Of a stretch of 64,000 bases of DNA, positions 10,810 to 47,764 are shown in pieces. The stretch comes from Candidatus Woesebacteria bacterium GW2011_GWB1_39_12 (GTDB taxonomy: Bacteria > Patescibacteriota > Microgenomatia > UBA8517). Position numbers and translations under genes: made by a program. The first letter of the stretch is position 1; the number at the start of each line of letters is the position of its first letter. A model generated the notes under the pieces. It was not told the DNA's origin. It was given only the letters and a program-made list of their open reading frames with translations, and ran no database searches. The stretch spans positions 3,698 to 67,697 of the forward strand of contig LBWB01000005.1 in assembly GCA_000993405.1 (NCBI GenBank), written 5' to 3'.

Positions 10810-11169
10810 GGGGACGATCGGTTTCGACGGGAAATGTACTTTAAAATCTGCAAGCAAAGTTTGACCCACACTTTTCAAAAGAGGTCAAAAAGAATAATTG
10901 CTAACAAAAGCGATTATGACTTCGACTACGCTTATTTAAGCTAAGTTGAATGCTCACCGGCCTTGTTTCTCAACCGAGCTGGATGGGTATAAACCTGTTG
11001 AGATGCGGAAAGTATGAGTGGTTTTATATACTTTCCTAAGACTTAAAACCAAACTCTCAACTCTTTCTTTAGTTTTAATGTTGAGAATTAAAAATTTAAG
11101 CTAAATAAGCTTGTAGAAGATTTTAAATTCATTTTTCGGACGAGGGTTCGATTCCCTCCGTCTCCACCA
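10810..11169 (+). ncRNA. ssrA: tmRNA (SsrA)
   Basis: 5' GGGGACGATCGGTTTCGACGGG matches the canonical tmRNA 5' end. 3' GGACGAGGGTTCGATTCCCTCCGTCTCCACCA is a tRNA-like T-arm plus acceptor plus encoded CCA. Acceptor pairing GGGGACG/CGTCTCC. By analogy with the E. coli resume region, the tag ORF is GCT AAC AAA AGC GAT TAT GAC TTC GAC TAC GCT TAT TTA AGC TAA = (A)NKSDYDFDYAYLS. smpB lies immediately downstream on the opposite strand. Confidence 0.85.
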
Positions 11170-11172
11170 AAT

Positions 11173-11607
11173 TTACTTGAGCTTTTCTCGAAGCTCTTGT
11201 TCCATTTCTCTTTGAATATCCTTTTTCTTAATACTTTCCTTTTTTTCAAACTTTCTTTTCGATTTTGCCAGAGCAAGCTCAATCTTGGCAAGATTTCCTT
11301 TTGTATAAATTTTTGTCGGGACAAGAGTCAACCTTTTTTGTTTTATCTTCGTTTGAATGGAAATAATTTGGTCTTTGTGAAGAAGGAGTTTTCTGGTTCT
11401 GGTCGATGAATAGTCCTTTTTTCCCTCGACCGGTATGTTTGCGTTGACTAGATAGATTTCGCGGTCAATAATTTTTGCAAAAGAATCCGATAAATTTACG
11501 TGCCCACCCCTTACGGCTTTTGCTTCAGCGCCCAATAAAGATATTCCCGCCTCGATTCTTTCGAAGAGATTATAATTAAACTTAGCCTTTTTATTTACAA
11601 TTTGCAT
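11173..11607 (-). CDS. smpB: SsrA-binding protein SmpB
   Basis: ORF 11173..11670. The likely start is the ATG at 11607 (MQIVNKKAKFNYNLFERIEAGISLLGAEAKAVRGG...RKLLLHKDQI...LTLVPTKIYTKGNLAKIELALAKSK). Matches the conserved SmpB core. A heptamer repeat array sits at and upstream of the start. Confidence 0.85.
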   Translation of the reverse strand: MQIVNKKAKFNYNLFERIEAGISLLGAEAKAVRGGHVNLSDSFAKIIDREIYLVNANIPVEGKKDYSSTRTRKLLLHKDQIISIQTKIKQKRLTLVPTKIYTKGNLAKIELALAKSKRKFEKKESIKKKDIQREMEQELREKLK

Positions 11608-11616
11608 AATAATATA

Positions 11617-11658
11617 GTGCAAAGTACAAAGAGCAAAGAACAAAGGAGTAAGCGAGTA
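11617..11658. repeat. Degenerate heptamer tandem array (gtgcaaa gtacaaa gagcaaa gaacaaa ggagtaa gcgagta), 6 units
   Basis: Read directly. Located at the 5' end of, or upstream of, smpB. Confidence 0.8.
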
Positions 11659-11714
11659 AGATTTTCCCATGCGCTTTGTCCTATGAACTTTGTGCTAGTT
11701 TATTTTACTCTTAA

Positions 11715-12383
11715 ATGGACTTAATTAGCTTAATATTTCCAAAAACGTGTTTAGGATGTGGTAGAGAAGGGAAATATATTTGTCAATCGTGTATTAATAA
11801 ACTTGTACTCCTTAAGCAGTTATGTCCTTATTGCGAGAAGGCGTCAACCGACGGGGTTACACATATTAAGTGTCTAAAGAAACTTCGACTTAGCGGCGTT
11901 TTTTCAATATGGCCATACGAGGGAGTGATTCGGACTGCGATTTTAAAGCTCAAATATAAATTTGCCAAGGAGATTGCGAAAGAACTCTCAGAATACATGG
12001 CAAATTACCTTAAAAACCAACCGATATTTCCGAAAAACTTGACACTTACACCGATTCCTCTTTATTTCCTCAGAGAAAACTTTCGCGGATTTAATCAAAG
12101 CGAACTTGTTGGTGAACCTTTAACAAAGAAGATGGGCTGGGATTTTAATTCTGATATTCTTATTCGGAAAAGGTTTCGCCGCCCCCAAACCGAGCTTAAA
12201 GGGAAAGAGCGACGAAGGAATATAAAAGGAGTTTTTTCTATGAATCCCAGCTACAAACTACAAACTACCAGCTACATACTTTTCGACGATGTCTATACCA
12301 CGGGTTCGACTCTCAAAGAAGCTGCGAAAGTATTAAAGCGAAACGGAGCGAAAGAAGTTTGGGGGTTAACAATCGCAAGATAA
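11715..12383 (+). CDS. comF: ComF family protein (phosphoribosyltransferase domain with N-terminal Cys4 zinc finger)
   Basis: 222 aa. CLGCGREGKYICQSCINKL...CPYCEK zinc ribbon. C-terminal PRTase motif ILFDDVYTTGSTLKEAAKVLKRNGAKEVWGLTIAR. Confidence 0.8.
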   Translation: MDLISLIFPKTCLGCGREGKYICQSCINKLVLLKQLCPYCEKASTDGVTHIKCLKKLRLSGVFSIWPYEGVIRTAILKLKYKFAKEIAKELSEYMANYLKNQPIFPKNLTLTPIPLYFLRENFRGFNQSELVGEPLTKKMGWDFNSDILIRKRFRRPQTELKGKERRRNIKGVFSMNPSYKLQTTSYILFDDVYTTGSTLKEAAKVLKRNGAKEVWGLTIAR

Positions 12384-12390
12384 ATAGGGA

Positions 12391-12807
12391 TTAGCGATAA
12401 GGACCGTAATATTTCAGTGATTCAGGATATTTTGAGCGTGCGACAAAGAAAATATTCCAGACTGGATCGGTCAATAACCATATTCCCTCTGTCGATAAAT
12501 TGGTTTCTTTGCCTTTTTCATAAATGATATTTACAACGTCTTGTTTAATCTGTTTGATCTCTAGTTTTTTATATGGAAACAATGGGGACTTCACGCACGA
12601 AGCATAAAGTAGATCAGACCAATCAATACATTTATCTAATTCAGTAGCTATCCATTCTTGATAGTTAAAATTTTTAGCAAACTGGGTTTTATCTTCAACG
12701 TCGGGAATTATCCGGAGGAGAAGTAACGATTTTATGGTAAGTGCAACACTTACTACTAAACCAACCGTAAGAGTAAAAAATAAAATCTTCTTGAATTTCT
12801 CTTTCAC
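12391..12807 (-). CDS. Hypothetical membrane-anchored protein
   Basis: 138 aa, N-terminal TM or signal anchor. No recognisable motif. Confidence 0.45.
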   Translation of the reverse strand: MKEKFKKILFFTLTVGLVVSVALTIKSLLLLRIIPDVEDKTQFAKNFNYQEWIATELDKCIDWSDLLYASCVKSPLFPYKKLEIKQIKQDVVNIIYEKGKETNLSTEGIWLLTDPVWNIFFVARSKYPESLKYYGPYR

Positions 12808-12898
12808 AATTTTAGCATAACAATAATTAACCAGAATTTCTAATGGAGTGGAAGATTAAGTGTACTAGCAAGAGAATTATTTGAAGCAAATGTATTTG

Positions 12899-12983
12899 CG
12901 GAGGGTACAGGATTCGAACCTGTGTAGGGATTTCTCCCTCGAGTTTTCGAAACTCGCGCAATTGTCCACTCTGCCAACCCTCC
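12899..12983 (-). tRNA. tRNA-Ser (anticodon CGA)
   Basis: Reverse complement GGAGGGTTGGCAGAGTGGACAATTGCGCGAGTTTCGAAAACTCGAGGGAGAAATCCCTACACAGGTTCGAATCCTGTACCCTCCG. Cloverleaf with anticodon loop TTCGAAA, a long variable arm, T-loop GGTTCGAAT. No CCA encoded. Confidence 0.85.
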
Positions 12984-13112
12984 TCGTCGGAACTAGCTTC
13001 GCTTTCCGCAAACCGCTTACGCTTTTTGCTTTACGCTTCGCTGTTCCTCCTCTCAAAATTTCTTGAAGAAATTTTGTATCTTCAAATTCCAAAGGGGTAT
13101 ATCTTTGATGGG

Positions 13113-13185
13113 TGCACCTGGGAGGAATCGAACCTCCAACCTCTTAGTCCGCAACCAAGCGTTCTATCCATTGAACTACAGGTGC
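13113..13185 (-). tRNA. tRNA-Arg (anticodon reads GCG)
   Basis: Reverse complement GCACCTGTAGTTCAATGGATAGAACGCTTGGTTGCGGACTAAGAGGTTGGAGGTTCGATTCCTCCCAGGTGCA. Standard 73-nt cloverleaf, anticodon loop TTGCGGA. Confidence 0.75.
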
Positions 13186-13195
13186 GAATATAACG

Positions 13196-13263
13196 AGCAC
13201 TTGTAGCGAGATCGACAAGGTTCTGAGCGGAGCTCAGGTTCTTATCCATTGAACTACAGGTGC
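13196..13263 (-). pseudogene. Degenerate tRNA-like partial duplicate: 5' half identical to the adjacent tRNA-Arg, aberrant anticodon and T arms
   Basis: Reverse complement GCACCTGTAGTTCAATGGATAAGAAC CTGAGCTCCGCTCAG AACCTTGTCGATCTCGCTA CAAGTGC. The first 25 nt are identical to the tRNA at 13113-13185. The anticodon region is replaced by a CCTGAGC-TCC-GCTCAGG hairpin, and the T arm does not fold canonically. Confidence 0.4.
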
Positions 13264-13320
13264 AAGTACATAATTTTACCAGATTTGAAGCCAAAAATCT
13301 TCTTAGGTTAAAGAAGGGGC

Positions 13321-13899
13321 TTAGGAGATTTTTTTTGAAACCCAGTCTGAAGCTTTATCCATTCTCGTGGGAGCTGCTTCCTCCTCAGGAATATAAAGAG
13401 AAAGGGACTTTTTAATTTTATCCTTATCGCTATCGTTAATTACCAACTCTAACCTTCCCGGAACTACCAGTGTTTCCAAGATCAATAAATCAGTATTCAA
13501 GCGTTTTGTAAACCAAAAACGAGTGAAAAGCTCCCAATCGTTTCTTCTGTCAGCAACTTTTATTCCCTTGTTGGTAACGGCGTATTCGATCGTTTCCGGT
13601 TCCACTGTTGACAAAATATAAAACAAAAAGACCAAAGCGATCAAAAGCACAACAGGCATTGCACCTTCAACAATAAAAAGAATAAATCCAAAAATAGAAG
13701 CAATAACAATTAACCTTACCCAGAATTCCCTCTCTCTTTTCTTAAAAGCTCTTGCCGGTGCCTTCCAGGAAAAAAGCAATTTTTCCGGTTCGGGTCTTGG
13801 AGGAAGTGGGGATTGAACAGGCTGTTGGGGGGTAGCTTGTTGGGTCGCTTGAGGAGAAGGAGCTTGATTACTTTTCTGATTGGGCATATCTAAAATCAT
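13321..13899 (-). CDS. Hypothetical membrane protein: Q/P-rich N-terminus, two TM segments, C-terminal domain of unknown function
   Basis: 192 aa. No recognisable motif. Confidence 0.5.
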   Translation of the reverse strand: MILDMPNQKSNQAPSPQATQQATPQQPVQSPLPPRPEPEKLLFSWKAPARAFKKREREFWVRLIVIASIFGFILFIVEGAMPVVLLIALVFLFYILSTVEPETIEYAVTNKGIKVADRRNDWELFTRFWFTKRLNTDLLILETLVVPGRLELVINDSDKDKIKKSLSLYIPEEEAAPTRMDKASDWVSKKIS

Positions 13900-13964
13900 T
13901 ATACATACTTGGTTAACAGCTTTTCAATAAGCCTTTATCGGTGATATAATCTCAACTGCAAGGA

Positions 13965-14047
13965 GGAGTCGCCTAGTGGTCGATGGCAGAGGTTTGCTAA
14001 ACCTCGATCCGCAGGGGTCACGTGGGTTCGAATCCCACCTCCTCCGC
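13965..14047 (+). tRNA. tRNA-Ser (anticodon GCT)
   Basis: GGAGGAGTCGCCTAGTGGTCGATGGCAGAGGTTTGCTAAACCTCGATCCGCAGGGGTCACGTGGGTTCGAATCCCACCTCCTCCG. Anticodon loop TTGCTAA, long variable arm. A 16-nt copy of its 3' end (gaatcccacctcctcc + ACCA) recurs at 14113-14132. Confidence 0.85.
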
Positions 14048-14136
14048 TCGTTTTACTCGCGGAGTCGTTGGGATTTGATAGCGCACAAGTAAAGTATTTC
14101 ATGCTTTGCACGGCGAATCCCACCTCCTCCACCAAT

Positions 14137-14604
14137 ATGTTAGACAAAAATACTGTTTTAGTTTCCGCTGCGTGTGTCTATAGAGACGTAAAAGGAAAGC
14201 CTCGCTGGTTTTTTATTAAACAGACGGAAGTTGATGGTTGGGAAATTCCCAAGGTTTTGGTAAGAAAAGGAGAATCATCTGTTAGAGCGGTTCTTAGGTT
14301 GATGGGAGAAAAAGGCGGCATGAGTACAAGGGTTTTGGAAGAAGCAGGAAGGGCCGGCGGAGTAACAACTATTAATGGAAGAAGTTTACCCCAGAGACAT
14401 ATTTATTATTTGATGATGGCCAAGTCTTTGGCAAATGAGACAATCGGATTTTCTGAGTGTCTGTGGCTTGAATATTCCAAAGCGGTAAAAAAGGTTAACT
14501 CTAAAAGAGATAAAACGATGTTAAAAGCCGCTAGAGAAACTTTGGAAAAATGGAAAAAGGAAAACCAGAAAAGGAGAAATGGTTTGACATTTGAAGCTTC
14601 ATGA
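14137..14604 (+). CDS. NUDIX-fold protein with a degenerate Nudix box (possibly inactive)
   Basis: ORF 14068..14604. The upstream extension overlaps a tRNA-derived repeat, so the likely start is the ATG at 14137 (MLDKNTVLVSAACVY...). The segment GESSVRAVLRLMGEKGG aligns to the Nudix box but lacks the conserved EE. Confidence 0.5.
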   Translation: MLDKNTVLVSAACVYRDVKGKPRWFFIKQTEVDGWEIPKVLVRKGESSVRAVLRLMGEKGGMSTRVLEEAGRAGGVTTINGRSLPQRHIYYLMMAKSLANETIGFSECLWLEYSKAVKKVNSKRDKTMLKAARETLEKWKKENQKRRNGLTFEAS

Positions 14605-15104
14605 TGCGCGAGTTTTCCGCCGGGGGCGTTGTTTTTAAAAAAGCGAAAAGTAAAGTTTTATGGTTGGTAGCAAAGTCTTCTCCCAGCAAAAAATATCCTG
14701 GAGATATCTACAGACTTCCTAAGGGTTGGGTTGACGATGAAGAAAACGGTAAAAGGCCCGGACCACTTTCAAGGGGAGAAAAAAAGTTAACAGAAGATGA
14801 ACTTCGAAGTACCGCAGTAAGAGAAGTACAGGAAGAAGGAGGAGTAGAAGCCGAAATTATAAAAAAAATCGGAACAGAAAGATTTTTTTATACAAAAGAA
14901 GGAGAACGTATTTTGAAATTTGTTACTTTTTATCTGATGAAGTGGAGGAAGGATTTAGCTACCGGTCCGGGTTTTGAAACCGAAAAAGTTGAGTGGTTGG
15001 ATTACGAAGAAGCTCGAAAAAGACTTACCCATTCCGGAGAGAAAAAGATGCTGGATAAAGCAAAACAGAGTTTAGATCAAGGTTTACAAGAAAGTTTGGT
15101 ATAA
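14601..15104 (+). CDS. NUDIX hydrolase
   Basis: 167 aa. GGVVF...LPKGWVDDEE...Nudix box G-x5-E-x7-REVQEEGGV intact (REUxEExGU signature). Confidence 0.8.
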   Translation: MMREFSAGGVVFKKAKSKVLWLVAKSSPSKKYPGDIYRLPKGWVDDEENGKRPGPLSRGEKKLTEDELRSTAVREVQEEGGVEAEIIKKIGTERFFYTKEGERILKFVTFYLMKWRKDLATGPGFETEKVEWLDYEEARKRLTHSGEKKMLDKAKQSLDQGLQESLV

Positions 15105-15133
15105 TGTAGCGTTTGGATTATTTAGAGTATTAA

Positions 15134-15220
15134 GGAGAGGTGCGAGAGCGGTTTAATCGGTACGATTGGAGATCGTATGTGATCGCAAGGTCACCGAGGG
15201 TTCGAATCCCTCCCTCTCCG
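15134..15220 (+). tRNA. tRNA-Ser (anticodon GGA)
   Basis: GGAGAGGTGCGAGAGCGGTTTAATCGGTACGATTGGAGATCGTATGTGATCGCAAGGTCACCGAGGGTTCGAATCCCTCCCTCTCCG. Anticodon loop TTGGAGA, long variable arm. Confidence 0.85.
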
Positions 15221-15301
15221 CTCACCTTCGTTTTGCTTGATTTAGAACCTTTCCAGTGCTATTATAGGACGTTTAATACTTTTTAGGACTTACTCAAATT
15301 T

Positions 15302-35923: not shown

Positions 35924-36047
35924 ATAATGTTAAATATTGGTTCGGATAAAATCAACTTGGCTCGAGAAATGGTCACAATTTCGGACAACTGACTGGGTAA
36001 ATTACCTTGAATACCCAGAATACGCAACTAAGGAAGTTAATCGATTC

Positions 36048-36947
36048 CTAAACCTTAGTTAAGATATTTTGAGGCTTACCTGCTACAAAAGCTTCGATAT
36101 TCTGCACCGCTATTTCGGCACCATTTACAAGCGCTTGTTTAGACGACCAGGCAATGTGAGGAGTTACTAGCACCTTTGGATTACTCAGGGCTTTCTGATA
36201 GAACTCGTTAGTTGTATCGCCAAACTTTTCTGGATCGCAGTCTATTGCAGCGCCTCCCACAATTCCGTTATCAATCGATTTGAGCAACCCATCCAGGTCA
36301 TAAGTGTATCGTCTGACAAAGGACACAAAGTAAGCACTCTTTTTAAGCGACATAAAGAACTTTTCATCAAGTAAGTTTTTACTTGTAGAGTTGCAATTGA
36401 GGGCGTTAATCACTAAGTCAGCATCGGCGGCTTTGGCAATTAAATCGTCACCTCGTTCAAAGAAGCTGACTTTCATACCCAAAGCCTCACAAGGAATAGC
36501 AATCTTAGAGCCTATGCTTCCTTTGCCGACAATAAGCACTTTCTTTTCATTCAAGCTCTCATGAACTTCGACAGAGATGGTTTTGTCAGCCCTTACTAAG
36601 GGAATAAACTTACGAAACAAGGCAAGGGTCATGAACATCACCCACTCGATAATTGATGGTCTATTGCCACCTTGTGAATTAGCAACTACTACGCCTTTCT
36701 TTTTTAGCTCTTTAGAGTTGAATACACCAAGTTCGACATAGGGATAAGTCACAAAAATATCTTTTAATTTGGGTAAGCTATCGAGCAGGAACGCACCGTC
36801 ACTATAAAGAACATCAGCCCCATAAGTTTGCTTAACTAAGTCATCAGAACTTGACGGACTGGAAAGATAATTAACCTCACCTAGCGCTTCAAGCCGTGCC
36901 TTTTGTTTGTCTGTTGGATTGGCTCCTAATACTACAATTTTTGTCAT
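36048..36947 (-). CDS. D-isomer-specific 2-hydroxyacid dehydrogenase (NAD-binding)
   Basis: 299 aa. VLIVGKGSIGSKIA (GxGxxG), GGAAIDC, TPHIAWSS are signatures of the D-2-hydroxyacid dehydrogenase family. Confidence 0.8.
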   Translation of the reverse strand: MTKIVVLGANPTDKQKARLEALGEVNYLSSPSSSDDLVKQTYGADVLYSDGAFLLDSLPKLKDIFVTYPYVELGVFNSKELKKKGVVVANSQGGNRPSIIEWVMFMTLALFRKFIPLVRADKTISVEVHESLNEKKVLIVGKGSIGSKIAIPCEALGMKVSFFERGDDLIAKAADADLVINALNCNSTSKNLLDEKFFMSLKKSAYFVSFVRRYTYDLDGLLKSIDNGIVGGAAIDCDPEKFGDTTNEFYQKALSNPKVLVTPHIAWSSKQALVNGAEIAVQNIEAFVAGKPQNILTKV

Positions 36948-38588: not shown

Positions 38589-38777
38589 ATGCCGAAGAAA
38601 AACACGACTTTACCAAAATTGTTAACTATCCGCCAAGCAGCGGAGATTTTGAATGTCCATGTGGAGACACTGAGACGATGGGATAAAAGCGGAAAGTTGA
38701 AGGCTACCCGAATCAACGAGCGTGGTGATAGGCGCTATGACCCAAGAGATATCGAAAAAATCTTAAATAACAAATAA
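38589..38777 (+). CDS. Excisionase/MerR-type helix-turn-helix DNA-binding protein
   Basis: 62 aa. LLTIRQAAEILNVHVETLRRWDKSGKLKATRINERGDRRYDPRDIEKI is typical of the excisionase-family HTH. Directly precedes the 1134-aa ORF with a 4-nt gap. Confidence 0.7.
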   Translation: MPKKNTTLPKLLTIRQAAEILNVHVETLRRWDKSGKLKATRINERGDRRYDPRDIEKILNNK

Positions 38778-38781
38778 ATCT

Positions 38782-41700
38782 ATGAGCGACCTTCTTGGAG
38801 GAAAATTAGATAATTCAGAGATTAAAAAGGAGATCGGCAAATCCTCCTTCTCTACTGGGTATAAACCATCCAGTCAACTAATCAATGATACTCTTGAACA
38901 ACTTTGGTTTCATGATTTTTACAATAGTTTTATATCCGACGAGGTTTATCTTAGCTACCTACTTAGTTACCTGAATCAAATTAAGCCTCGCAAATTTGAC
39001 CGATATGAGTTCTATAAATATTTCTTTGATCAAATTGAGAAAAAACTAAGTGCAAGGAAAATCCTACAGCAAATTGCACTCACATTTGAAAAGCTACAAA
39101 GCGATGCTATCCCCCCAGAGGAATACAATTCCCTCTTACAACAGGTAAATGCTCCGACAGACACATTTAGTGCCTCCTGGATGGACACATGCCATTTAGG
39201 AAAAGTTAAAAAAAGAGACGAGAAGAAATTATTTATTTGGGAGCATCATACCCTTACTGAGTTTTTAGTCGCCGAATATTTACTTGAAGGCGAGGATGTC
39301 TTAGGAGAATTTCAAAAACTGGCAATTCTAAAGCAAGAAGGCATAACTGCTTTTAAGCCGTCATGGTCTGGTGTTTTGCGCTTCCTTATTGAATCTAAAA
39401 AAGGCTTAGAAGTCAGCGCCTGGCTGATCAGTTTCTTAGAAAAACATCCAGATGACCTTGATGATAATCTAGCAGAACTTCTCGTTTACGAGCTGGCAAA
39501 CCAAACTTCAAAGATCAAGAAAAGAGTTTTTAATCTTGTTTACAACTCTTATTTTGAAAAAGTTACCTGGATACCTGTTAGGGCAAGAGTTCGCTTATCT
39601 AAATTTGTCGATAAACAATCATATAAAAGGCTAAAAACCGATATTAAAGTTTGGGCAAACAAGACTGAAACTTTTGTGCGGAGGGGTAATGTTGTCTCAA
39701 TAATAGAAGGTATATTAAAGGACAAAAATAAAATCGTCGATGCTACAGAGAAAAAATTCTGGCTCACAAAACTAGTAGAGTTTGCTAATAATCCCAACGA
39801 TGACGGCAATGGTGTTCTCCAAAGACACAGCTTGGGAGCATTAGCACAATTTGAAGACGAGAGCATAATCTCTAAGGTCTCGCAGAAATGTTTCGAGGAA
39901 ACACGAGACTCGTTGGTAAGAAATGAATTTATACAGTTTTGTATTGACACGAATCCTAACTCTAAAGAAGCTATCGATTACTTTGTAAAAGACATCTCTA
40001 GTATTTACTCCCGCCACGGGCTTTACAGGATTACAACCCAAGAAGCAATTGAGTATTTACTATCCAAAATCGCCGAAGACACCAGTTTTCTTAGGGAGTT
40101 TTTAGATAAGGAAAGTGTTTTCGACAAAGACGGTAGTGACAGGCGGCTTCTTAAAAATATTAAAAAGCGCATCAATACTAAGGTGATCCAATTATTAAAA
40201 AAGATTATTTTTACGGTTCTTCGTATCACTGATTATTATCATGAAGGGCAATCTAGTCTTCTGCGTCAAATAATTCAGCTAATCAACGAGCATGATCCAC
40301 GCTATCTCTTTGAGATCTTGACAGATATAAAAAGTGAAAAGGATGAACAAAAAATAGACAGGCTTTTCTGGGATTCAAGAGATTTATTGGCATTGTTGCT
40401 AACCAAAGACAATGTCAAAGAATATTTCGATTTTTTGAAAGATTTTCCAGATAGAACAAAGAGGGATACTCAATTTGTCGTATATAGCGCAAAACGATTG
40501 AACGGAGAAATCGGAGAAGCGACTTATCAAGAAGCAGTGAAACTAAAATTGGTTGAAAAAGTTGATGAAAGAAGCTCGAAAAAATACTTCGAAAAACAAG
40601 AGAGGCAAAGAAAACAGAAGGTCTACACGAATTTTCTTCATCAGCTTGAGCCAGAACCAGGCAAATTTCAGACTGGCGTCTTTGAATATTTTATTCAAAA
40701 CAAGGAAGAGATTCAGAAACAATGGAAAAAGAAAGATAAGCAAAAACTGCTGAAACTGGCAGTTAAAGTTTGCCTTCAAAAAATTAATCCTCGTCAATTT
40801 CGAGTAACTTTAGCAAATAAGGGCGAAGGGAATAACCAGTTTACATGGAGCACACCCGCTTCCTATTACGGAGACCTGCTCAATGCGGTTAAAGAATTAG
40901 CACCAGAAGAAATCAAAAAGCATAGACAGAATATTATTGACTTTATTCCCTACGAGTTTGATACCTCAGCTACTTTAGATTTTATAGAACAAGTAAACGA
41001 TACTGACCTTGCCTGGGTAAATCAGGTCATGAGTGATCAAAACGACCACCGTCGTTATCTTATACCACAAACTTATATTTATCTGGTAGGAGAGTATGCA
41101 AAACGCCGTTGTAAATTGGATACCGTAAAACCAATTCTGAAATCATTTATAACCGATCCCGATATTCGGGACTATACCCGCCGTTCAGCTTTAGAAAATT
41201 TAGCTCATTTCATAGACAGCTCAGATAAAGTGACTAAGAAGTTCCTCAAGGATATTTTTACAAAATCAAGTGACCAAGAGCTCGTCGAGATTGCTAATGG
41301 CTTGTTAATAACTGTATATGAAGACGAGAAAGCCATTAATTGGCGTTTTGAAAAGCTAAAAAAACCGCTGGAATTTAACAGAGAGGATGTCGAAGGTCAA
41401 GCTCATTCGGTTGGGGCAGTAGAAGAAGAACTCATGAGAATGTCGTCAGCAAAACCATTAATGGACTTGCGTGACGAAAAGTATTTACCCAAATTTTTGG
41501 ATTTACTTGACTACTCATTTAAGTTTACTGAAAAAAAAGATAACAAAAAGTATTGGGAATATGTCAACTATCTCTGGCGAACAGTTACAGAATTCGTAGA
41601 CAAATTAAAAGAAAAGGGGTCATTTATACCCCTTATGGAACTAGAAAACTGGGTTGAGGAACACTCTCAATATGAGAACATTAACTGGTTTGAGGCACGA

Positions 41701-42186
41701 ATAAAGGAAATCAAGAGAAATTATCTCAACCTTGTTCATCCTTTCGATAAACTTGTGGACGGCGTGGAGGAACTCAACAAGATTGGTGTGCCTGCCGCAT
41801 CAATAGCTTATTTTCTATTCAAAGCACAATTAGTAGAGTCAAGATTGCGAGATCTTATTTTGGGAATAAATTACTTCCTTGAAAAGGCAAATAACAAATT
41901 GCCAATCTACAGGAAACTGAATCACGAAAATAAAAAAAGACTTAAAAATTCAACATTAAGCCAATTGTGTGACGAGCTGAACTGTTACCAAAGCCAACTG
42001 GTTGAGAAGTTAAAGAATAAGCTAAGTCAATTTTCTACCGAAAGGAATAAATTTAATCACGAACTATATAATCAGAACAAAGATATTCGTGACCTAAGTG
42101 AAGAAGCTAAAAAATACACAAAATTTGCTGAAGAAAGCCTAGATTTAATACACTCAGTTTGGGAAGAAATTTTGACTATCAGGTAA
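38782..42186 (+). CDS. Large (1134 aa) alpha-helical protein of unknown function with a possible C-terminal HEPN-like motif
   Basis: No P-loop found. Long helical-repeat (HEAT-like) middle region. The C-terminal ~130 aa contain ...SQFSTERNKFNHELYNQ..., i.e. R-N-x3-H, the HEPN RNase signature pattern. In an operon with the upstream HTH gene and inside the putative integrated element. Confidence 0.5.
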   Translation: MSDLLGGKLDNSEIKKEIGKSSFSTGYKPSSQLINDTLEQLWFHDFYNSFISDEVYLSYLLSYLNQIKPRKFDRYEFYKYFFDQIEKKLSARKILQQIALTFEKLQSDAIPPEEYNSLLQQVNAPTDTFSASWMDTCHLGKVKKRDEKKLFIWEHHTLTEFLVAEYLLEGEDVLGEFQKLAILKQEGITAFKPSWSGVLRFLIESKKGLEVSAWLISFLEKHPDDLDDNLAELLVYELANQTSKIKKRVFNLVYNSYFEKVTWIPVRARVRLSKFVDKQSYKRLKTDIKVWANKTETFVRRGNVVSIIEGILKDKNKIVDATEKKFWLTKLVEFANNPNDDGNGVLQRHSLGALAQFEDESIISKVSQKCFEETRDSLVRNEFIQFCIDTNPNSKEAIDYFVKDISSIYSRHGLYRITTQEAIEYLLSKIAEDTSFLREFLDKESVFDKDGSDRRLLKNIKKRINTKVIQLLKKIIFTVLRITDYYHEGQSSLLRQIIQLINEHDPRYLFEILTDIKSEKDEQKIDRLFWDSRDLLALLLTKDNVKEYFDFLKDFPDRTKRDTQFVVYSAKRLNGEIGEATYQEAVKLKLVEKVDERSSKKYFEKQERQRKQKVYTNFLHQLEPEPGKFQTGVFEYFIQNKEEIQKQWKKKDKQKLLKLAVKVCLQKINPRQFRVTLANKGEGNNQFTWSTPASYYGDLLNAVKELAPEEIKKHRQNIIDFIPYEFDTSATLDFIEQVNDTDLAWVNQVMSDQNDHRRYLIPQTYIYLVGEYAKRRCKLDTVKPILKSFITDPDIRDYTRRSALENLAHFIDSSDKVTKKFLKDIFTKSSDQELVEIANGLLITVYEDEKAINWRFEKLKKPLEFNREDVEGQAHSVGAVEEELMRMSSAKPLMDLRDEKYLPKFLDLLDYSFKFTEKKDNKKYWEYVNYLWRTVTEFVDKLKEKGSFIPLMELENWVEEHSQYENINWFEARIKEIKRNYLNLVHPFDKLVDGVEELNKIGVPAASIAYFLFKAQLVESRLRDLILGINYFLEKANNKLPIYRKLNHENKKRLKNSTLSQLCDELNCYQSQLVEKLKNKLSQFSTERNKFNHELYNQNKDIRDLSEEAKKYTKFAEESLDLIHSVWEEILTIR

Positions 42187-42483: not shown

Positions 42484-43257
42484 TTACTTCGGCGCTTGTC
42501 CGTTCAGCTCGTTTGAATAGACGATCACTTGCCCTCCGTTAGTGATGGTTAAGCTCAGGCTTCCGCCTGTGCTGTTTCGCCATCCGAAGAAGTAGTTGAT
42601 CTTGCTGCCTCCGCCGTCCTTTATGTTCGTCATTTCAGGATCGAGTTTTAGGCTTGTCAGGTCTACTCCGAGGATATTTTTATGATCTTCGATAAACTTC
42701 TCGGCTACCTTCTGGGCTTGCGCCTGAGTGTAGCGGGGAGTGTAGTCGTATTCCGCTTGCGGATCAAACCAACGACTGCCATCTGAGTTCGTTCCCCATC
42801 TGCTACCTTCCCATGCTTCTGCCCTCACTGAGACGATGTAATTCGTCTTTGGGTCTATCGTGAAGCCTCCAAGCTTGGCATTATAATGCTCGTTCTTGGG
42901 ATTGTTATAATCGGTGCCTTCAAAGGTGCTGCAGATAAAATCCACAGCAACTGACTTATCACCAAGAAACTCTTTGATATTGGCGACTGCCTTTGCCCTC
43001 TGGTCTTCTGGTCGGGCTGTCAGTTGGCAGTATTCTTTGTAGGCATCTTTATGCGCCTGGCTCTCAGCATTCTTATTTGTGTTCATCGCCTCTACTAACT
43101 GGGCGATTCTCGTCGCTTTGGCATCAGTTGACAATGTCGGGGCAACTTTTGATTGATTTATTAAACGAGGGATTAGGATGATAACCAGAAGCGCAACTAC
43201 TGCTAAAAGTAAAATAGCGGGAAGAAAACGAGATTTATTTTTATTTGTCATATTCAT
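42484..43257 (-). CDS. Membrane-anchored extracytoplasmic protein, hypothetical
   Basis: 257 aa. N-terminal TM LPAILLLAVVALLVIILIP. Strong SD GAGGAGGTGA. Confidence 0.55.
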   Translation of the reverse strand: MNMTNKNKSRFLPAILLLAVVALLVIILIPRLINQSKVAPTLSTDAKATRIAQLVEAMNTNKNAESQAHKDAYKEYCQLTARPEDQRAKAVANIKEFLGDKSVAVDFICSTFEGTDYNNPKNEHYNAKLGGFTIDPKTNYIVSVRAEAWEGSRWGTNSDGSRWFDPQAEYDYTPRYTQAQAQKVAEKFIEDHKNILGVDLTSLKLDPEMTNIKDGGGSKINYFFGWRNSTGGSLSLTITNGGQVIVYSNELNGQAPK

Positions 43258-43550
43258 TTTTCACCTCCTCTCGGGTATAAATTGATAATTTAGCCTTGAG
43301 TGTTGCATGTTAACTTCGCTTAAGGGAGATTGTCAAATCAAACAAAAAGCTCCCCCCAGCGATGGCTTGCGCCACCTGCCACCCTTTCGGATGACAGCCT
43401 CGACAGCGCTCTAGGGAGAGCTTGTTGCTGTCGAGGACTTCTTCATGCCATGCCCCTTGCGGAGTTTAGGCAATGTGCTTATATTGTAACAATTTTAGGC
43501 TAATTTTTATATAATGATCATATCCATTGATACTGTCCTATAAATGGAAA

Positions 43551-44356: not shown

Positions 44357-44623
44357 TTGATAACTATCACTATGACGCAGCAAGAACTAAACAACGATTA
44401 CTATTCAACCAACGACCTTTCTTTGGCTACCACCCTCTCCCTTTGGTGTCCTATTGAAGATATTGACCGTTCTAATCCCCGCAAGGCATTTTTTATCTTC
44501 CGAAAAACTTCTGAACTGGAAAAGCTAATTGACCAGTATTTCCGAAACGAAATCAAGATTTCACCGCAAGTTTATTTCAACCAGTTGCGGGTTATTAAAG
44601 CTCGGCTCTATGCCAACGAATAA
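44357..44623 (+). CDS. Small protein resembling the DUF5659 family
   Basis: 88 aa. YSTNDLSLATTLSLWCPIEDIDRSNPRKAFFIFRKTSELEKLIDQYFRNEIKISPQVYFNQLRVIKARLY matches the S-T-x-D-L-x-L-A pattern and length of DUF5659-type proteins. Confidence 0.4.
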   Translation: MITITMTQQELNNDYYSTNDLSLATTLSLWCPIEDIDRSNPRKAFFIFRKTSELEKLIDQYFRNEIKISPQVYFNQLRVIKARLYANE

Positions 44624-46117: not shown

Positions 46118-47704
46118 ATGAAAACTGCCATATTCTGCCGAGTAAGCAGTAAAGAACAGGAAGAAACAGGCTACTCCCTGCCAGCGCAGGAGAAATTCTT
46201 ACGAGAGTATGCCGACAAACAAGGCTTAGAAGTCGCCAAGGTCTTCGCCGTTTCAGAGTCTGCAGCAGGCAAGGTCCAAAGGAAGATCTTTATTGAGATG
46301 ATTGCTTATGTCCGCAAGCACGACATCCCCACAATTATTGTAGAAACAACTGACCGTCTAACCAGGAACTTTGCCGATGTTCCCACTATCGACTTATGGA
46401 TTACTGAGAACGAGGATCATCAAGTCCACCTGGCAAAAGAAGGCTGCATTCTCCACAACACCTCCCGCTCCCACGAGTGGTTTATGTGGCGGGTAAAGGT
46501 GGCAACCGCTGAATACTATGTCCGACTCCTCTCGGAAAATGTAAAGAAGGGGCAAAAGGAAAAGATCGCCCAGGGATGGTTACCAACCAAACCGCCTAAT
46601 GGCTATAAAACCATCGGAGATACAGGACACAAAATCCATGTTGTTGACGAAGATACCGCGCCCTTTGTGAGGAAAATGTTTGATCTGTATATTACAGGCA
46701 ATTATTCAATCAAACGGCTCTCCAAAAAGATGTATGCCGAAGGGATGCGATCCCAATTGGGGCATAAACTCCCGCATAGTCGCATTCACACCTTGTTGCG
46801 CGATCCTTTTTATATCGGCAAAATGAGATGGCAAGATAACATTTATGAGGGTAAACAGCAGCCGTTAATCACCGTCGAGCAATTTAATAAAGTCCAGACC
46901 ATGCTTAAAAGCAGAACTACCCCTAAATACCGCAAGCATAACTTCCTCTTCCGAGGTCTGATCAAATGCGCTGGCTGCCACAACTCAATTACTTTTGAAA
47001 CGGCTAAGGGTCATATTTACGGTCACTGCAACCATTATCACGAATGCCCACAAACAACCTGGGTTAAGGAATACGAAGTCGAAGACCAGCTTTTAGAAGG
47101 GTTTGAAACCTTAAAAATCAAAAACAGCCGTATAGTCGGATGGCTGAAGAAGGCACTCAAGGAAAGTCACCAGGACGAGATCGAATACCACAACAACACC
47201 GTAGGCGAACTTGAAACCCGCTACGAGGCGGTTCAGAAGCGGATGGACAAGTTATACGACGACAAGCTAGACGAAAAGATTGCTCCAGAGTTCTACAACA
47301 GGAAATTCAAACAGTATTCAGACGAGAAAGATGAAATAACGGAATCGATAAAGAAACACGCCCAGGCAAGCACAGGCTACATTAACTTAGGGGTGAATAT
47401 CTATGAACTCTCCCAAAGAGCCAAAGAACTATACCTGAAAGCCAAGGCTAAAGGCATGATAGACGAGCAAAGAGCCTTAATCCGATTTATCTTTGCCACC
47501 TTAACGGTTGATGGGGAAAAATTAAGCTACACCTATTCCAAGACCTTCAAAATCCTCTCCGAGGCAGTCGCAGAAACAAATGGTCCGAAAGTGGGAAAAA
47601 TTGACGACTTAGAAAATGGAAAATTCGAACTTACAAAAAAGCCCGACAATTCAACACAAAAGGACGCTTTGTTGCCTCTGCGTCCCATCTGGCTCCTCGG
47701 GTAG
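46118..47704 (+). CDS. Large serine recombinase (resolvase-family catalytic domain, recombinase domain, zinc ribbon)
   Basis: 528 aa. MKTAIFCRVSSKEQ (catalytic Ser). Recombinase-domain core. CAGCHNSITFE...HCNHYHEC zinc ribbon. C-terminal coiled coil. The last 15 nt overlap the 3' end of tRNA-Asn on the opposite strand. Confidence 0.85.
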   Translation: MKTAIFCRVSSKEQEETGYSLPAQEKFLREYADKQGLEVAKVFAVSESAAGKVQRKIFIEMIAYVRKHDIPTIIVETTDRLTRNFADVPTIDLWITENEDHQVHLAKEGCILHNTSRSHEWFMWRVKVATAEYYVRLLSENVKKGQKEKIAQGWLPTKPPNGYKTIGDTGHKIHVVDEDTAPFVRKMFDLYITGNYSIKRLSKKMYAEGMRSQLGHKLPHSRIHTLLRDPFYIGKMRWQDNIYEGKQQPLITVEQFNKVQTMLKSRTTPKYRKHNFLFRGLIKCAGCHNSITFETAKGHIYGHCNHYHECPQTTWVKEYEVEDQLLEGFETLKIKNSRIVGWLKKALKESHQDEIEYHNNTVGELETRYEAVQKRMDKLYDDKLDEKIAPEFYNRKFKQYSDEKDEITESIKKHAQASTGYINLGVNIYELSQRAKELYLKAKAKGMIDEQRALIRFIFATLTVDGEKLSYTYSKTFKILSEAVAETNGPKVGKIDDLENGKFELTKKPDNSTQKDALLPLRPIWLLG

Positions 47705-47764
47705 GATTCGAACCTACGACCTTTCCCTTAACAGGGGACCGCGCTACCACTGCGCCACCGAGGA
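47690..47764 (-). tRNA. tRNA-Asn (anticodon GTT)
   Basis: Reverse complement TCCTCGGTGGCGCAGTGGTAGCGCGGTCCCCTGTTAAGGGAAAGGTCGTAGGTTCGAATCCTACCCGAGGAGCCA. Canonical cloverleaf, anticodon loop CTGTTAA, CCA encoded. Confidence 0.85.

Follow-up and report, generated by a model that had tools for sequence, protein, structure and literature searches.

We describe a two-gene locus in a stretch of 64,000 nucleotides from Candidatus Woesebacteria bacterium GW2011_GWB1_39_12 (contig LBWB01000005.1, positions 3,698 to 67,697; hereafter, the window). A short gene for a helix-turn-helix (HTH) protein is followed, after 4 nucleotides, by a gene for a protein of 1134 amino acids, with both open reading frames (ORFs), their coordinates, and their spacing as given in a preliminary description of the sequence. 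The large protein is identical to KKQ98032.1 (UniRef100_A0A0G0M3Z6), which is annotated only as a “hypothetical protein” of Candidatus Woesebacteria, within the Patescibacteria or candidate phyla radiation (CPR). Sequence searches of Pfam, NCBIfam, PADLOC, and PDB return no match for it. Most likely, it is an unannotated bacterial immune sensor of NLR/STAND ancestry in which the ATPase has been lost and whose exchangeable tail is probably a HEPN-type ribonuclease (RNase).

A search of 5.8 billion proteins recovered 99 homologs of the large protein (the query), all of which contain its residues 1 to 985 (the core). The few homologs with a named organism come from Patescibacteria (Moraniibacteriota and Curtissbacteria), with the exception of one distant, NACHT-bearing relative from Marinifilum. 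Genomic loci that carry homologs extend this range to Roizman-, Levyi-, and Shapirobacteria. The distribution of the family is patchy, and its loci lie in variable mobile-element and defense neighborhoods. All members with a named source go by “hypothetical” or “uncharacterized,” except for a distant NACHT-bearing relative, which has a generic domain label as its name. One locus, L001, carries an ortholog with 72% identity. A scan of a viral-contig collection found no relatives. Several contigs of metagenome-assembled genomes with close homologs (L009 to L011, L014, L016, L017, L021, and L031) are labeled “uncultured Gammaproteobacteria/Pseudomonadales.” Their gene content and nearest named relatives are those of Patescibacteria, and the bins may be taxonomically mislabeled.

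In STAND proteins of the NACHT clade, the region after the nucleoside triphosphatase (NTPase) is homologous to the core. The most distant homologs (P0096 to P0099; E values of 1e-45 to 1e-73), together with those at nine genome loci, are 1330 to 1370 amino acids long. Most of these relatives have an N-terminal Walker A motif, GEPGxGK[TS] (degenerate in two loci), all have the Walker B motif LDGLDEV, and they weakly match NACHT, NPHP3_N, AAA_16, and nSTAND3. In a joint alignment, the query family starts exactly at the end of the NTPase core of these relatives, with about 175 residues missing. From there, the query is collinear with them across the helical domain and the winged-helix motif (query WEHHTLTEFLVAEYL aligned to FENTEFQEYLAAKE). 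It thus retains the helical and winged-helix domains that follow the NTPase in STAND/NACHT proteins, and then a repeat-type sensor, and lacks the P-loop NTPase with its Walker A and Walker B motifs.

The absence of a P-loop had been remarked upon in the preliminary description and is borne out here, as the query contains no GxxxxGK[ST] motif. What was there a passing remark concerns the most interesting feature of the protein, namely, that it is a NACHT/STAND derivative minus the NTPase. The Walker A/B domain is wholly missing in the query and in about 95 family representatives. Because these representatives share a common start, a common length, and invariant N-terminal residues (W42, D45, H155, H156, and E160), the loss is not a truncation artifact. 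No recurrent P-loop gene adjoins family members in the loci inspected.

The full-length AlphaFold model of the large protein (predicted local distance difference test, pLDDT, 88.2; predicted template modeling score, pTM, 0.76) is consistent with this domain order. It has a helical region (residues 11 to 136), a winged-helix-like unit (140 to 204) with beta-hairpins at 140 to 153 and 182 to 191 and a HHTLTEFLVAEYL helix at 156 to 168, an all-alpha solenoid (208 to 960), and a separate four-helix module (987 to 1132). The solenoid agrees with the long HEAT-like helical-repeat region that had been proposed from the sequence.

The C-terminal end of the core is variable. About 23 homologs share the query's C-terminal ~150 amino acids, about 60 stop at ~1000 amino acids (“core-only”), and a few, of 1168 to 1208 amino acids, have another tail; a TIR domain is fused in P0041, P0078, L017, and L035. 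Each core-only gene inspected is followed by a same-strand gene for 222 to 345 amino acids that overlaps or abuts its stop codon (Table 1). These downstream genes are translationally coupled to the core gene and look like split effectors. Two encode TIR proteins (L026, 3.4e-11; L043, TIR_2 2.4e-4, with the fused TIR tails also recognized as homologs by BLAST), two encode proteins with an E-C-K-N motif that might be PD-(D/E)xK-like and a faint Mrr_cat match (L014 and L016), two encode proteins with a C-terminal transmembrane helix (L008 and L021), and those of L019 and L020 are of unknown type. The fused tail of P0091 is homologous to the separate downstream gene of L019, and in a rough neighbor-joining tree of the core, several clades mix HEPN-type, TIR-type, and core-only forms. 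Thus, from the fused, split, and absent tails, the P0091-L019 homology, and the interleaved tree, the C-terminal position is an effector slot that has been repeatedly swapped, fused, and split. This architecture is typical of prokaryotic immune proteins. At the loci examined, no free-standing HEPN-like gene lies beside a core-only form, whose partner is instead a TIR protein, a transmembrane protein, or a protein of another kind.

The NACHT-bearing relatives (P0096 to P0099 and the large ORFs of L023, L025, L028, L030, L032, L033, and L036 to L038) have a common C-terminal domain of ~200 amino acids without a Pfam match. A RPDFLV…VLEIKL (PD…ExK-like) signature was seen in it by eye, and these tails might tentatively be assigned to the PD-(D/E)xK nucleases.

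Table 1. Coordinates of the features at the locus and of the genes downstream of core-only homologs (positions in the window unless a locus is named).
Feature	Position	Strand	Description
Small HTH gene	38589..38777	+	62 amino acids; MerR/HTH_17, excisionase-family DNA-binding; first gene of the operon
Large gene	38782..42186	+	1134 amino acids; NACHT-less, STAND-like probable sensor-effector protein
Large protein, residues 1-205	38782..39396	+	Helical domain, then winged-helix-like domain
Large protein, residues 208-960	39403..41661	+	HEAT/ARM-like alpha-solenoid; presumed ligand-sensing or scaffold region
Large protein, residues 987-1134	41740..42183	+	C-terminal four-helix module; probable HEPN-type RNase effector
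Q1016		+	Key tail residue
E1019-x3-R1023	41836-41850	+	Key tail residues
R1088	42043-42045	+	Key tail residue
N1089		+	Key tail residue
H1093	42058-42060	+	Key tail residue
Large serine recombinase	46118..47704	+	Pfam Resolvase, Recombinase, Zn_ribbon_recom
tRNA-Asn(GTT)	47690..47764	-	ARAGORN and Rfam; 3' end overlaps the recombinase stop
Gene downstream of core-only homolog, L008	10961-11734
Gene downstream of core-only homolog, L014	6841-7518
Gene downstream of core-only homolog, L016	11012-11770
Gene downstream of core-only homolog, L019	10867-11730
Gene downstream of core-only homolog, L020	8293-8964
Gene downstream of core-only homolog, L021	3564-4337
Gene downstream of core-only homolog, L026	10937-11974
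Gene downstream of core-only homolog, L043	4070-4738

The tail of the query had been called HEPN-like from the motif R1088-N-K-F-N-H1093 within ERNKFNHELYN (residues 1087 to 1097). The motif alone carries no weight, as the preliminary description itself allowed, because a single R-x4-H is the chance expectation (1 observed versus 0.93 expected in shuffles of the protein's composition). When conservation across homologs was checked, R1088 and H1093 proved invariant in all 24 fused homologs, even where module identity falls to 37%. Among 1.84 billion proteins, a profile built from the module recovered 96 representatives, nearly all of them free-standing proteins of 160 to 200 amino acids. These retain the R (91 of 92), the H (92 of 92), E1019 (87 of 88), and Q1016 (82 of 88). 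Directly after the R stands an N in 21 of 24 fused homologs and 60 of 92 free-standing relatives. Upstream, in the E-x3-[KR] motif (E1019-S-R-L-R1023 in the query), the E is kept in 24/24 fused and 87/88 free-standing sequences, and a K or R stands at +4 in 24/24 fused and 75/88 free-standing ones. The two motifs are found jointly in every fused module and in 72 of 85 free-standing sequences, and this conservation spans fused and free-standing relatives at 20 to 40% identity.

HEPN domains are defined by an Rx4-6H motif at the end of helix 3, with N, D, or H after the R, and by an acidic residue in Ex3[KR] (Anantharaman et al. 2013, PMC3710099). The tail has an Rx4-6H motif with a polar residue after the R and the upstream acidic residue in Ex3[KR]. 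In the models, R-x4-H lies at the C-terminal end of a helix (1072 to 1097), directly before the last helix. The predicted four-helix fold is compatible with HEPN, but a fold search alone cannot separate it from generic bundles. Known HEPN RNases (AbiD/F/J Abi_C, RiboL-PSP-HEPN, DUF3644/EC042_2821, HepT, and Csm6) share with the tail the R-[N]-x3-H and upstream E-x3-[KR] motifs, mobile or restriction-modification (R-M) contexts, and fusions to STAND proteins; their four-helix bundle of ~130 to 150 amino acids, with R-[N]-x3-H closing helix 3, is predicted for the tail. However, the tail and its ~95 free-standing relatives match none of these families above threshold. We consider it very probable that the C-terminal module has a HEPN fold, and fairly likely that it acts as an RNase. 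The tail and its free-standing relatives would then form a HEPN-like clade that no Pfam family captures.

The free-standing relatives (P0100 to P0194, ~95 representatives, and also L040 84-1783) display Q-x2-E-x3-[KR], T-L-G, and R-N-x3-H motifs. Their genomic contexts are mostly contigs too short to inform; P0101 overlaps a gene for a type I R-M specificity subunit. P0100 (245 amino acids) comes from the 3' part of a large gene that is broken (L044 3-2518) and whose upstream partial ORF aligns to query residues 301 to 820, the result of either a frameshift/pseudogene or an assembly error.

The two genes at the locus are carried by a mobile element, as had been proposed. A large serine recombinase, 81% identical to that of L001, lies at the far end of a block of ~9 kb over which the window and L001 are collinear. 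In both, the block comprises, in this order, the HTH gene, the large gene, a minus-strand gene (257/290 amino acids), a DUF5659 gene, two small genes, and the recombinase. Outside the block, the flanks of the window and L001 are unrelated, and those of the window hold ordinary-looking cellular genes: to the left, cupin, 2-hydroxyacid dehydrogenase, and PEMT-like methyltransferase genes; to the right, DUF6580, DUF4430, and VIT1. The overlap of the recombinase with a tRNA 3' end recurs in L012 (7198-8841), L016 (3877-5467), and L019 (3335-4907); the tRNA is tRNA-Asn in the window, L012, and L016, and tRNA-Glu in L019. Therefore, from the collinear block, the recombinase/tRNA overlap, and the ordinary cellular flanks, the operon is cargo of a ~9-kb tRNA-integrating serine-recombinase element. 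The tRNA-Asn is its probable integration site and right boundary; a search of the window for another copy of the tRNA-Asn end (attachment site), or for long terminal repeats, gave nothing convincing. The recurrence of the recombinase/tRNA overlap suggests that tRNA-targeting serine-recombinase islands with defense cargo form a family.

Genes next to homologs include a ResIII/TnsA-like and N6_N4 methyltransferase pair and PycTM (L001), PLD and VirB4/TraC/TrbC conjugation genes (L003), an EcoRI methylase and GmrSD-HNH (L004), AbiEi/AbiEii, a methyltransferase, and an OLD-family nuclease (L006), an Abi_C fragment (L012), and type I and IIG R-M genes (L013, L020, and L043, the last also with SNase).

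Several known systems resemble the large protein in part. Avs families and bNACHT proteins have the P-loop NTPase that is entirely missing here and carry their effector at the N terminus, whereas that of the large protein is C-terminal; no Avs or bNACHT model in PADLOC matches it. The closest precedent is the reuse of an Avs7-type sensor in NTPase-less defense proteins, Dsr1 and a HEPN-containing protein (PMC13581612). Like the large protein, Dsr1-type proteins are NTPase-free and join a STAND-type sensor directly to an effector (SIR2 or HEPN-like). However, they have the sensor only, whereas the large protein also keeps two other parts of the NACHT module, its helical and winged-helix subdomains, and there is no detectable sequence relationship between it and Dsr1 (PADLOC Dsr models are unmatched). 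The NTPase-less reuse of STAND sensors is thus already published, and the large protein represents a new form of a known type, a likely NLR-like sensor-effector that lacks the NTPase and carries a HEPN-like clade outside current libraries. The iSTAND proteins of MoxR-vWA ternary systems are likewise STAND-derived, do not hydrolyze NTP, and are linked to variable effectors, but they keep an inactivated NTPase, which is deleted in the large protein, and need MoxR and vWA partners (PMC7159879). Membership in this group is rejected: The query has no Pfam iSTAND match, and no MoxR or vWA genes occur in the neighborhoods examined.

Taken together, we think it likely that the large protein is a single-chain innate-immunity sensor-effector of the abortive-infection type, carried as cargo by the ~9-kb tRNA-Asn serine-recombinase element. 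In such a protein, the solenoid would recognize an invader-derived molecule, and ligand binding would relieve autoinhibition and/or drive self-association without a nucleotide switch. Two C-terminal HEPN domains would thereby be brought together as a dimer, in which R1088 and H1093, helped by E1019 and N1089, would form a composite metal-independent RNase site. Cleavage of cellular or invader RNA would then stop growth.

Several points weigh against this interpretation. The query module and the 24 fused homologs match no HEPN family in Pfam at E ≤ 10 (a scan of the 24 fused modules returned coiled-coil noise only), and a Foldseek search of the C-terminal model against PDB was nonsignificant. 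PDB profile searches with module alignments A1 and A3 found only GCN4-like or designed bundles. HEPN matches of the free-standing relatives, most commonly to DUF3644, RiboL-PSP, Cthe2314, and MAE_28990, all fall below the Pfam gathering cutoffs (best, 2.3e-4). The earlier HEPN call thus stands as regards a discrete module of ~150 amino acids with an invariant R-N-x3-H, but it finds no significant family match. Moreover, a HEPN domain may keep its R-x-H motif and yet not be an active RNase; that of AbiA is inactive in vitro. No family member, including the NACHT-bearing relatives, matches an experimentally validated defense family in PADLOC, where matches among the relatives are limited to a TIR-level match to the candidate PDC-S66; we infer the defense role from architecture and neighborhood.

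The preliminary description had proposed a dedicated two-gene system in which the HTH protein is the regulator or antitoxin of the effector. As a toxin-antitoxin or addiction pair that stabilizes the element, the HTH protein would neutralize or repress a HEPN toxin. The 4-nucleotide gap, the apparent single operon, and the location on an integrative element fit this proposal, as does the presence of an HTH homolog directly upstream of the large gene in L039 (91% identity) and L010 (69%). These and the window are the only three such loci. In L001 and L031, the HTH homolog instead lies 5 kb upstream of the large gene and heads other defense genes, immediately preceding a nuclease/methyltransferase (R-M) pair in L001 and a methyltransferase homolog plus two further genes in L031, with the large gene further down the cassette. 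It is absent from the other loci examined, including L003, L004, L006, L008, L012, and L013. HEPN toxins of toxin-antitoxin systems pair with MNT nucleotidyltransferases, and no MNT gene, nor any conserved adjacent antitoxin, is present at the locus; TIR-bearing and core-only relatives also have no such partner. We therefore regard an addiction pair as quite unlikely. From its gene context, the HTH protein does not appear to serve the large protein as an antitoxin or as an obligate partner.

The identification of the 62–amino acid protein as a MerR/excisionase-type HTH is itself confirmed by Pfam (MerR_1 1.1e-12; HTH_17 6.7e-12) and by the NCBIfam excisionase-family domain TIGR01764 (33.5 bits versus a cutoff of 28.8). 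Its best PADLOC match is mad1, over the full length (5.5e-13). Like the HTH gene in the window, mad1 is the first gene of a defense cassette, but mad2 to mad8 of the MADS operon are absent from the window locus. Deletion of mad1 hardly affects MADS defense, and its authors see it as a dispensable, widespread regulator. The HTH protein is probably a head-of-cassette transcriptional regulator of the cargo. Possibly, it is instead the excision factor (recombination directionality factor) of the element, because it has the excisionase-family signature and lies at the element end opposite the recombinase. Unrelated XRE-type HTH genes lie near the large gene in L003, L016, L020, and L026. In the window, the HTH gene is apparently cotranscribed with the large gene; a promoter/terminator scan of the locus gave nothing decisive, and an extended −10 sequence (TGTATAAT) 11 nucleotides upstream of the HTH start was seen by eye only.

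Two further alternatives concern the large protein itself. Its tail might be HEPN-like in fold and noncatalytic, acting like AbiA as a dimerization or nucleic acid/ligand-binding domain, with any killing function elsewhere. We find this unlikely: The near-absolute conservation of R, H, and E, with N after the R, is what one expects of an active site and not of an interface, the tail occupies the slot of TIR effectors in paralogs, and the large protein holds no other candidate catalytic domain. The protein might also be a nonimmune HEAT-repeat scaffold or housekeeping protein, or the decaying remnant of a NACHT gene, given that it has no recognizable enzymatic Pfam domain and that its best overall structural matches are generic HEAT/ARM proteins. 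However, it matched no housekeeping family when this was checked. Such an origin is highly improbable, because the patchy distribution in variable mobile-element and defense neighborhoods, the N terminus, length, and invariant residues kept across the ~95 representatives, and the swappable effector tails cannot be reconciled with either a pseudogene or a core function of the cell.

Innate immunity in animals, plants, fungi, and bacteria relies centrally on NLR/STAND receptors, and the nucleotide-driven switch of these receptors is regarded as central to their function. The family described here might be a widespread, mainly Patescibacteria group of NLR-derived receptors without this switch. 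In such receptors, the retained helical/winged-helix/solenoid scaffold would be joined with no intermediary to exchangeable effectors, namely, TIR, a new HEPN clade, nuclease-like domains, and membrane proteins, in fused or split form. We hold this broader view tentatively and give it slightly less than even weight. If true, STAND-type pattern recognition and effector activation would be possible without NTP binding or hydrolysis, and ultra-small CPR genomes would invest in such receptors on tRNA-targeting serine-recombinase islands. The family, which keeps the effector swapping that marks immune proteins, would thus offer a natural test of whether the NACHT-associated helical/winged-helix/repeat scaffold senses and activates without NTP. 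For Patescibacteria/CPR, on whose immune repertoires our literature text searches found almost nothing, it adds a candidate defense family and a HEPN-like clade outside Pfam. We infer both the defense function and the RNase activity; specialists should find the missing nucleotide switch and the occurrence in Patescibacteria of interest.

Other conserved features accompany the large gene. The 88–amino acid DUF5659 protein (window 44357-44623, plus strand) is conserved within the element, with 82% identity to its L001 homolog, and L031 and L036 likewise have the gene in the vicinity of the large gene. A LOOT RNA (Rfam RF03000) was detected at 43361-43472 on the minus strand (74.9 bits versus a gathering score of 46.4), ~100 nucleotides upstream of the minus-strand gene for 257 amino acids (42484-43257). 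The segment around it (43145-43470) is 80% identical to L001 12298-12622. Before the HTH gene, a stretch of 98 nucleotides (35955-36052) that is intergenic in the window is 87% identical to L001 545-642, with different flanking genes. It has no Rfam match at the gathering threshold; candidates for its nature are a small RNA, a conserved small ORF, and an element boundary. Elsewhere in the window and unrelated to the large gene, positions 10810 to 15221 hold a transfer-messenger RNA (tag ANKSDYDFDYAYLS), followed by a cluster of tRNA-Ser (three copies) and tRNA-Arg genes.

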